A stretch of DNA of 17,968 nucleotides. Source: a virus. Taxonomy: Duplodnaviria; Heunggongvirae; Uroviricota; Caudoviricetes. How positions within the stretch are numbered: the stretch's first letter is position 1; every line of letters starts with the position of its first letter. Shown here piece after piece: positions 15,027-15,423 of this stretch. The notes beneath the pieces are model-generated. The model saw nothing but the letters and a program-made list of their open reading frames with translations. It was not told the origin of the DNA and did not search any database. The translations under genes and the position numbers were made by a program. The stretch lies in the IMG/VR virus record IMGVR_UViG_2872185964_000004; one strand, written 5' to 3'.

Positions 15027-15123
15027 AGCTGCCTCGATACTTTCGCTATCGTTGGTGGTTAGAAGCCCGGTTAGTGTTAGCGCACTGCCGGGTTTCGTCG
15101 TTTCTGCACCTTGCGCCAACAAG

Positions 15124-15175
15124 GTGTTGAACACCAATTTAAACCCAGGTGTTAAACACGTCAAGTGTTGAACAC
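15124..15175. promoter_or_regulatory. Three palindromic operator-like sites GTGTT(G/A)AACAC in a divergent promoter region
   Basis: GTGTTGAACAC 15124-15134, GTGTTAAACAC 15149-15159, GTGTTGAACAC 15165-15175. A candidate sigma70 promoter for the RHH gene (-35 TTGAAC 15168-15173, 17-bp spacer, -10 CATACT 15191-15196) overlaps the third site. Confidence 0.6.
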
Positions 15176-15225
15176 TTATTTTTTTTCCTGCATACTGCAT
15201 TTGTTTTTTATGAGGGGTACACCAC

Positions 15226-15423
15226 ATGGCGACAAAAGCAGTAAACGCAAAATCACAAACCGTTGCGGCAAGGGTTCCGCATGAAGTTATGAACAATGTT
15301 GAGGCGGTAAAAATGCCTGGCGAAAGTACGGGGCAATTTGTTACTGCGGCATTAAAACGAGAAGTTGAATATCGCCAGCGGCGCAAGGCCAGTGAATCCG
15401 AGAAATCATTAATCACGTCATAA
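15226..15423 (+). CDS. Ribbon-helix-helix (CopG/Arc-like) DNA-binding protein, candidate switch regulator
   Basis: 65 aa; N-terminal beta-strand/helix/G-x-S/helix pattern (TVAARVPHEVMNNVEAVKMPGESTGQFVTAALKREVEY); ATG at 15226 with GAGGGG Shine-Dalgarno; immediately downstream of the operators. Confidence 0.6.
   Translation: MATKAVNAKSQTVAARVPHEVMNNVEAVKMPGESTGQFVTAALKREVEYRQRRKASESEKSLITS

Follow-up and report, generated by a model that had tools for sequence, protein, structure and literature searches.

A YlcI/YnfO-family protein and three 11-bp operators as the probable off-switch for the early genes of an Escherichia coli satellite

The stretch of DNA considered here, record IMGVR_UViG_2872185964_000004 of IMG/VR (17 968 nucleotides; 'the window' denotes this whole stretch), contains a capsid-forming phage-inducible chromosomal island (cf-PICI), a satellite in E. 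coli, judged from its gene content. Between its leftward operon and a rightward gene for a small protein lie three palindromic 11-bp sites. The small protein, of 65 amino acids (aa) and belonging to the YlcI/YnfO family, very probably forms with these sites an off-switch for the early genes of the satellite. The repressor–operator module is real and conserved, and it is of a known mechanistic kind. Much of the argument is comparative and draws on 36 loci from a scan of one genome per species, to which further E. coli alleles were added; the related loci are labelled L001–L044, and class A denotes the loci with the operator class of the window.

Operators and divergent promoters

The sites sit in the 199-bp gap between the ATG codons of a leftward Icd-like gene (15026) and the rightward 65-aa open reading frame (ORF; 15226). 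Three near-identical palindromic 11-mers had been noticed there in the initial annotation, and their number is far above chance: the window holds three exact matches to GTGTTNAACAC where 0.01 are expected, none of 200 dinucleotide shuffles reaches three, and with one mismatch allowed there are four matches against an expected 0.57. O1 (15124–15134) and O3 (15165–15175) are identical, both reading GTGTTGAACAC, and O2 (15149–15159; GTGTTAAACAC) differs from them at the central base. Similarity between the copies reaches beyond the 11-mer to a 13-nt unit, A[GA]GTGTTRAACAC, and successive copies are 25 and 16 bp apart. A fourth candidate operator, the one-mismatch copy GTGCTTAACAC over the GTG start of alpA (16369–16379), was rejected because it is not conserved in L001, L002 and L005, loci of the same class, and because 0.57 one-mismatch matches are expected per window; it is probably a chance occurrence.

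The operators lie over two promoters set back to back. The leftward promoter PL (15136–15164, minus strand) has a −35 element TTGACG (15164–15159), a 17-bp spacer and a −10 element TAAATT (15141–15136), and it scores 9/12 in a consensus scan. PR, the promoter of the gene for the 65-aa protein (15168–15196, plus strand), has TTGAAC (15168–15173) and CATACT (15191–15196), also 17 bp apart, and scores 8/12. O1 is found just past the PL −10, over its predicted +1; O2 is within the PL spacer and touches the PL −35; O3 is immediately upstream of the PL −35 and includes the PR −35. The pair can be described as divergent promoters with a common operator set, and both earlier observations from the window, that the 11-mers overlap two divergent promoters and that the third overlaps the −35 of the rightward gene, are borne out.

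A PL-type promoter (8–10/12) occurs at the same position in 30/31 related loci, though the sequence of spacer and operators differs. Its −35 begins 61 to 63 bp upstream of the rightward ATG in 30/31 loci, with one 11-mer in the spacer and another over the +1. The PR −10 (C/TATACT) ends at −30 or −31 in most loci; the PR −35 is weak in most relatives, where an operator is placed right after the PR −10 instead. On its sequence and position PL is read as a conserved leftward sigma-70 promoter bracketed by operators.

The YlcI/YnfO-family protein

The gene for the 65-aa protein (15226–15423, plus strand) is preceded by a ribosome-binding site (RBS), GAGGGG, at 15212–15217. Residues 9–50 match NCBIfam NF041551 (YlcI/YnfO) at 59.2 bits against a cut-off of 30 (E 2.9e-16), and RefSeq too labels its orthologues YlcI/YnfO. 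A search of a large protein collection with the 65-aa protein gave 74 relatives, all from Enterobacterales and mostly of 59 aa. The initial annotation had called the protein a ribbon-helix-helix (RHH) protein of the CopG/Arc kind. Although Pfam, applied to the protein and 37 relatives, returned no RHH family at E ≤ 1 (only faint CB_ParB_C, PSK_trans_fac and DUF7557 matches), and a PDB profile search found no homologue, this identity is very probable from two features. The predicted fold fits the beta-strand, helix, helix topology of the RHH superfamily, and the turn G32-E33-S34-T35 that would cap helix B is invariant or nearly so in 38 sequences; a G-x-S/T/N turn at this place is a mark of RHH proteins. 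S10 and R16 are likewise invariant in relatives. RHH proteins typically act as dimers that place a two-stranded antiparallel sheet in the major groove, where alternate strand residues determine specificity. If P18 is aligned with P15 of Arc, the residues of Arc that touch DNA, Q9, N11 and R13, have T12, A14 and R16 as their counterparts.

Literature searches for YlcI/YnfO, for DUF3950, for Icd-like proteins with RHH proteins and for SymR with satellites found no functional study. In Enterobacter cf-PICIs a 'YlcI/YnfO family protein' appears in gene lists as an accessory gene. Downstream of the RHH gene lies a 50-aa lipoprotein-like ORF (15460–15612, plus strand), which is probably variable cargo; it is absent from most relatives, in which alpA follows the RHH gene directly. 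Two loci, L003 and L004, have an orphan RHH gene (at 4001 and 344, respectively) in a chromosomal context that is not an island, with no divergent Icd-like gene. The orphan has a single palindrome, CTGTCGAACAG, right after its own −10.

Operator classes and covariation with the protein

The architecture upstream of the RHH gene is kept in 30 related islands, but the sequence of the 11-mer is specific to the lineage and falls into about ten classes. Counted from the RHH ATG, the lineage 11-mers are placed at about −102, at about −77 and at −61 or −32. The equivalent of O1 is found at −98 to −103 in other loci, and that of O2 at −76 to −78 in essentially all. The position of O3 (−61) is occupied in the window, in L001 and L005 and in the E. 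coli alleles L040–L044; in most other lineages the third site comes just behind the PR −10, at −32, and L002 and L005 have sites at both positions. Each lineage 11-mer, for example GTGTCAGCCAC, GTGTCSGACAC, GTGGAnTCCAC, GTGTGGCCCAC or CTGGCACCCA, is present in two to four copies per intergenic region and nowhere else in about 8 kb. Since all copies in a locus change in concert, a common reader is needed.

The N-terminal strand of the protein changes with the sites. Residues 9–17 read KSQT[VLI]AARV where the operator is GTGTTGAACAC, KS[KR]KLEARV with GTGTCAGCCAC, KSKRFDVRV with GTGTC[CG]GACAC, KSQK[LI]Q[AT]RA with [GC]TGGAnTCCA[CG], KSQSLKSRV with GTGTGG[CT]CCAC and KSQKMSARV with CTGGCACCCA. 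Residue 14 never varies inside an operator class and is different in 96% of the pairs drawn from two classes (mutual information 2.65 of 3.07 bits); residue 12 is constant within classes as well. Identity over residues 11–15 is 86% within classes and 31% between them, against 76% and 66% for residues 18–54, which form the helices. When the helices are compared, three loci (L002, L005 and L015) have their closest relative in another operator class.

The other genes of the islands do not follow the operators. L001, from Edwardsiella, has the operators of the window and an RHH protein 95% identical to that of the window, but its AlpA is only 33% and its integrase 23% identical. Conversely, L028 has an AlpA 66% and an integrase 56% identical to those of the window, yet different operators, and the same is true of L016, in which Rep is 69% identical. 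Operator class in these alignments is seen to follow residues 12 and 14 rather than the rest of the protein, AlpA, integrase or Rep.

Within class A, comprising nine alleles from four genera and including E. coli, Edwardsiella and Kosakonia, O1 and the PR −10 are invariant, O3 is kept in eight of the nine, O2 changes at its central base only, and the intervening bases vary. Conservation of the sites in homologous islands holds for their positions and, in class A, for their sequence; from one lineage to another the sequence differs. The concerted change of the 11-mers and their coupling to residues 12 and 14 support the proposal that they are operators of the RHH protein, and it is highly likely that the 65-aa protein is what reads them.

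At 3796–4180 of L001 (Edwardsiella hoshinae), an antisense RNA described below, the operators and the RHH gene are near-identical to those of the window and stand beside an unrelated AlpA and integrase. It thus appears that the control region is passed from island to island as a cassette. In three Xenorhabdus loci (L009, L026 and L036, upstream of 4001) deletions have merged two operator copies and left one or two sites, as recombination between direct repeats would be expected to do.

The leftward operon and a predicted SymR-like antisense RNA

The first gene of the leftward operon encodes the 68-aa Icd-like protein (14820–15026, minus strand; ATG at 15026, with GAGG 5 nt upstream), which matches NCBIfam NF033153 at 69.8 bits against a cut-off of 25. 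It is followed by ORFs of 74 and 127 aa (14248–14830, minus strand), overlapping each other and the Icd-like gene end to end; PHROGs assigns both to families of unknown function, and neither has a domain in Pfam or NCBIfam. A 333-aa ORF in the Icd-like frame (14820–15821, minus strand) was rejected as a spurious extension over the operators and the RHH gene. In RefSeq and elsewhere, 'Icd-like' proteins of 97–135 aa that span the control region are a frequent annotation (e.g. 8987–9391 in L037), and an over-extended coding sequence of this kind hides the region in current annotation.

The 100-nt leader between the operators and the Icd-like gene is highly conserved. RNAalifold predicts two hairpins with 26 pairs, of which 16 show compensatory changes. 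In the antisense consensus the paired share of cells is 97.1%; sliding the partners lowers it to about 40%, and none of 500 shuffles matches any of the measures. Because G–U cells (about 122) far exceed A–C cells (2), the structure is assigned to the plus strand, antisense to the leftward mRNA. We conclude that a predicted SymR-like cis-antisense RNA (15027–15105, plus strand), consisting of two hairpins with a U-rich tail after the second, covers the 5′ untranslated region and RBS of the Icd-like gene. In the window it folds with −34.1 kcal/mol (z −3.8). Rfam gives no match in the window at gathering thresholds; below the SymR (RF01809) gathering score of 61, matches of 29.8 bits in the window and of 28.0–32.3 bits in L005, L008, L012 and L014 are all full length, on the plus strand and in the orthologous position. 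A leader RNA on the sense strand, similar to C4/CI, was considered and rejected, there being no match to C4 (RF01695) in 14700–15500 at E ≤ 10 and the G–U pairs favouring the plus strand.

The alignment with K-12 symR takes in the −10 and the CAT that complements the start codon of the target. A putative extended −10 of the antisense RNA, TGgTATGAT (15011–15019, plus strand), lies within the 5′ end of the Icd-like coding sequence and aligns with the −10 upstream of the annotated start of K-12 symR; relatives have TAGACT or TATGCT at this position. By analogy, the antisense RNA would keep the first gene from being translated and thereby damp the operon: in P1, blocked translation of icd shuts off the genes downstream of it in the c4/icd system. 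No literature was found that links SymR to satellites.

How the switch may work

The following mechanism is proposed. The 65-aa RHH protein would recognize GTGTT-N-AACAC through its N-terminal beta-strand, with T12, A14 and R16 as the predicted DNA-facing residues and the specificity set at positions 12 and 14. Bound at O1 (over the +1), O2 (in the spacer) and O3 (beside the −35), it would block RNA polymerase at PL, the promoter that would head an early operon made up of the Icd-like gene, the small ORFs, the replication genes and then the capsid and packaging genes. As O3 holds the −35 of its own weak promoter, the RHH protein would also limit its own synthesis. The SymR-like RNA, made from inside the Icd-like gene, would add a second lock by pairing with the PL leader and blocking translation of the first gene. 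All three sites are on or beside PL, which suggests a single repressor acting on one strong promoter; the simplest reading is that one repressor shuts a good leftward promoter and damps its own weak one. Repression of PL together with autoregulation is likely. A larger role, as master repressor of the satellite, is a serious possibility that we stop short of favouring.

Several points weigh against an off-switch of this kind. Promoter-like matches in the region are no more numerous than in shuffles (4 against 3.6 expected) and PR scores only 8/12; the promoter calls therefore rest on conservation of position. From centre to centre the sites are 25 and 16 bp apart, neither distance being a whole number of helical turns, so that it is not obvious how the protein could bind cooperatively along a single face of the DNA. 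Published work attributes induction of such satellites to helper-triggered expression of alpA and identified no global repressor (PMC6092414), and nothing ties AlpA to the RHH protein. Part of the covariation could be linkage, the protein and its sites being adjacent and inherited together; this is countered by the change of all copies together and by the discordance between helices and operator class. In the window itself a pair of IS1 elements parts PL from the replication and packaging genes, and the switch may here control three small genes only; with the small genes cut off in this way, it probably no longer governs the whole leftward operon. Finally, we infer binding, repression, autoregulation and the effect of the RNA alike.

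Among the alternatives, the one that survives best makes the RHH protein a local autoregulator of a small cargo operon, similar to the Aca regulators that control anti-CRISPR operons, and without any role in the life cycle of the satellite. It would account for the overlap of O3 with the PR −35, for the site right after the PR −10 in most relatives, for the variable, cargo-looking gene downstream and for the orphan copy in L003 and L004, which retains only the site beside its own −10. It is nevertheless unlikely: O1 and O2 are on PL, not on PR, no other feature is as well conserved as this placement of the two sites (30/31 loci), and in most relatives the RHH gene is monocistronic and hence has no cargo to regulate.

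The initial annotation had likened the layout to a bistable switch of the cI/cro type. A true switch of this type, with the operators also bound by a leftward-operon product (the Icd-like protein or that of one of the next ORFs) that turns off the RHH promoter, is distinctly improbable. The divergent promoters do share three sites, and PHROGs calls the Icd-like families phrog_6196 and phrog_1743 'transcriptional repressor'. However, the opposite promoter of such a switch has to supply another DNA-binding regulator. Searches for a DNA-binding fold or domain turned up none, either in the 74-aa and 127-aa ORFs or in the Icd-like protein, for which the model has low confidence, so that such a regulator is not disproved. 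The analogy is therefore only partly supported: it holds for the shared operators, but no second regulator was found, and the SymR-like antisense RNA would provide the second layer of control.

That another protein uses the 11-mers (AlpA or an excisionase, a replication initiator acting at iterons, or Bro-N), and that the small ORF is unrelated to them, is very improbable. Satellites have both iterons and excisionase sites, and proteins of the AlpA type bind promoter-proximal elements (PMC9371919), but the operator class is uncoupled from AlpA, integrase and Rep and coupled to residues 12 and 14, and the 11-mers are on promoter elements, not beside the rep gene. The notion that the palindromes are functionless products of chance or repeat expansion has the weak promoter statistics in its favour and nothing more, and can be set aside as already refuted by the comparative data, with sites invariant across genera between diverging flanks, copies that change together elsewhere and no shuffle among 200 reaching three.

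For an off-switch built from the RHH protein and its operators, the route of induction also has to be considered. The initial annotation had suggested that the region may control induction of the satellite or of its cargo. What stands of this is the regulatory slot: in over 25 related islands the control module has int/alpA on one side and the replication genes on the other. Its link to induction is one that we infer. The alpA and Bro-N genes point toward the RHH gene. The rightward transcript has a strong predicted intrinsic terminator (15738–15769, plus strand; an 11-bp stem followed by UUUGUUUU, −20.7 kcal/mol, z −3.8), which is located within the 3′ end of the convergent Bro-N-like ORF (15707–16138). 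On the minus strand, the terminator scan found no convincing terminator between Bro-N and the RHH gene; the one candidate, 15636–15612, was rejected at −7.3 kcal/mol (z −0.15). Transcription from the alpA promoter could therefore continue leftward over the repressor gene and reach the early operon. Our guess is that repression would be lifted either by helper-induced alpA transcription running leftward through the convergent RHH gene or by an antirepressor acting on the protein; read-through from alpA as the route of induction is conjecture.

A wider proposal can be advanced tentatively, and we hold it to be less likely than not. The YlcI/YnfO protein, the operators and the SymR-like RNA may be the missing immunity module of the Gram-negative PICIs and cf-PICIs, a cassette exchanged between islands with unrelated integrases. 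Two beta-strand residues would in essence define its 'heteroimmune' specificities, at least ten in number, and when a helper infects, transcription driven by alpA would pass through the convergent repressor gene and override the module. The symR/symE leader in the E. coli chromosome would then be a domesticated copy of the RNA half.

Setting and distribution of the island

The left end of the window is phoQ (1–1461), and the island genes after it are transcribed almost entirely leftward: TerL, TerS, HNH, portal, S78 protease, major capsid, SSB, a primase/helicase-like Rep and a DUF4222 gene, followed by two IS1 copies and then the three small ORFs headed by the Icd-like gene. To the right of the intergenic region are the 65-aa ORF on the plus strand, the 50-aa lipoprotein-like ORF, the convergent Bro-N-like gene, alpA and a tyrosine integrase. 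The set of genes of a capsid-forming PICI is present (integrase, AlpA, SSB, Rep, capsid, S78 protease, portal, TerS, TerL and HNH), and there are no tail genes between phoQ and int in the window. This content matches that of the cf-PICI satellites in bioRxiv 10.1101/2022.09.08.507074.

The tandem IS1 pair (12586–14098, plus strand) was recognized from its repeats and InsA domains. The first copy lacks its right inverted repeat and a complete copy follows directly. The pair splits the leftward operon between the 127-aa ORF and a 77-aa ORF; in L037, the nearest relative, the operon is uninterrupted. Further along, ORFs of 139 aa (11555–11974) and 361 aa (10575–11660), both on the minus strand, overlap by about 100 nt and match the N-terminal and C-terminal parts, respectively, of a single 465-residue profile, phrog_2850. 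This may be one replication gene that was split or frameshifted, or a pair of modules found fused elsewhere; some other loci have just one of the two parts. Between int and alpA, the int-alpA RNA motif RF02996 is found above its gathering threshold in L012 (6966–7038) and L016 (6519–6587), and not in the window.

The allele of the window (at least 80% of 15100–15423 at 90–100% identity) is present in 487 of 5426 complete E. coli genomes (about 9%), and other alleles of the module occur across Enterobacterales. The allele of the window is absent from deposited phage genomes, in which tblastn with the 65-aa protein gave no match. The nearest E. coli relative and a relative from O157:H7 are located inside prophage terminase genes, a helper-embedded layout described for such islands (PMC10111431). 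The island of the model PICI, EcCICFT073, was not located in two 45-kb stretches of the CFT073 chromosome.

Comparison with known systems

The immI regions of P22 (Mnt) and P1 (c4-icd-ant) appear to be closer analogies to the module than cI/cro. In immI of P22, the RHH repressors Mnt and Arc act at the overlapping divergent promoters Pant and Pmnt. The satellite would share with P22 a small RHH repressor, an operator region over divergent promoters, repression of the opposite promoter and regulation of its own, as well as the reading of DNA by three alternate beta-strand residues, all of this being predicted here. It differs in that its protein has no detectable sequence similarity to Mnt or Arc, that there is no second RHH protein, that the element is a satellite and not a phage, and that an antisense RNA is added. 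Mnt and Arc each bind one operator as tetramers, whereas here there are three or four separate 11-bp sites at fixed promoter positions. With immI of P1 and P7 the module has in common an icd-like first gene (NF033153) and a small structured RNA placed to block an RBS. The C4 RNA of these phages, however, is processed from the same transcript whereas that of the satellite would be a cis-antisense transcript of the opposite strand, and the promoter is guarded in P1 and P7 by C1 and here, as proposed, by the RHH protein.

The RNA half of the module resembles K-12 SymR/symE (RF01809), a type I toxin–antitoxin pair, in its two-hairpin architecture, the conserved GUGGUUAG linker, its location opposite the start codon and RBS of the target, the aligned −10 and a putative promoter inside the coding sequence of the target. 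It differs in scoring only 28–32 bits against the gathering score of 61, in an Icd-like target without similarity to SymE, and in being carried by a satellite and not by the hsd/mcr region. The protein half differs from CopG of pMV158 and omega of pSM19035, which belong to a different sequence family and bind contiguous 7-bp heptads, in having separated sites of 11 bp.

Two K-12 prophage proteins, YlcI of DLP12 and YnfO of Qin, belong to the same NCBIfam family, and YlcI has the same strand-helix-turn-helix pattern (...IRFPNQMIEQINIALEQKGSGNFSAWVIEA...); no described function was found for either in the literature searched. The ylcI gene (4752–4946 in L039) is located immediately upstream of nohD, among the late genes of a lambdoid prophage, and not in a divergent early control region. 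Its upstream region has cacGTCAA and short repeats.

Gram-negative PICIs and cf-PICIs are widespread vehicles of gene transfer whose induction has so far been explained only via AlpA. Regulation of PICIs is described as relying on Stl/Rpr repressors in Gram-positive bacteria and on the AlpA activator in Gram-negative PICIs and cf-PICIs (PMC6092414; bioRxiv 10.1101/2022.09.08.507074); for the Gram-negative PICIs AlpA alone is described, and the existence of a repressor was called unclear in 2018 (PMC6092414). The literature searched gave no mention of YlcI/YnfO or any RHH regulator in the role of a PICI repressor, and the module offers a concrete and easily tested candidate for satellites without a described one. 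The roughly ten operator classes, paired with changes at two strand residues, also form a data set for an RHH recognition code and for the design of orthogonal repressor–operator pairs. In its layout the module is similar to stl/str of the Staphylococcus aureus pathogenicity islands, with divergent promoters between int/alpA and the replication genes; repressors of the Stl type are helix-turn-helix proteins, whereas that of the window is predicted to be an RHH protein.
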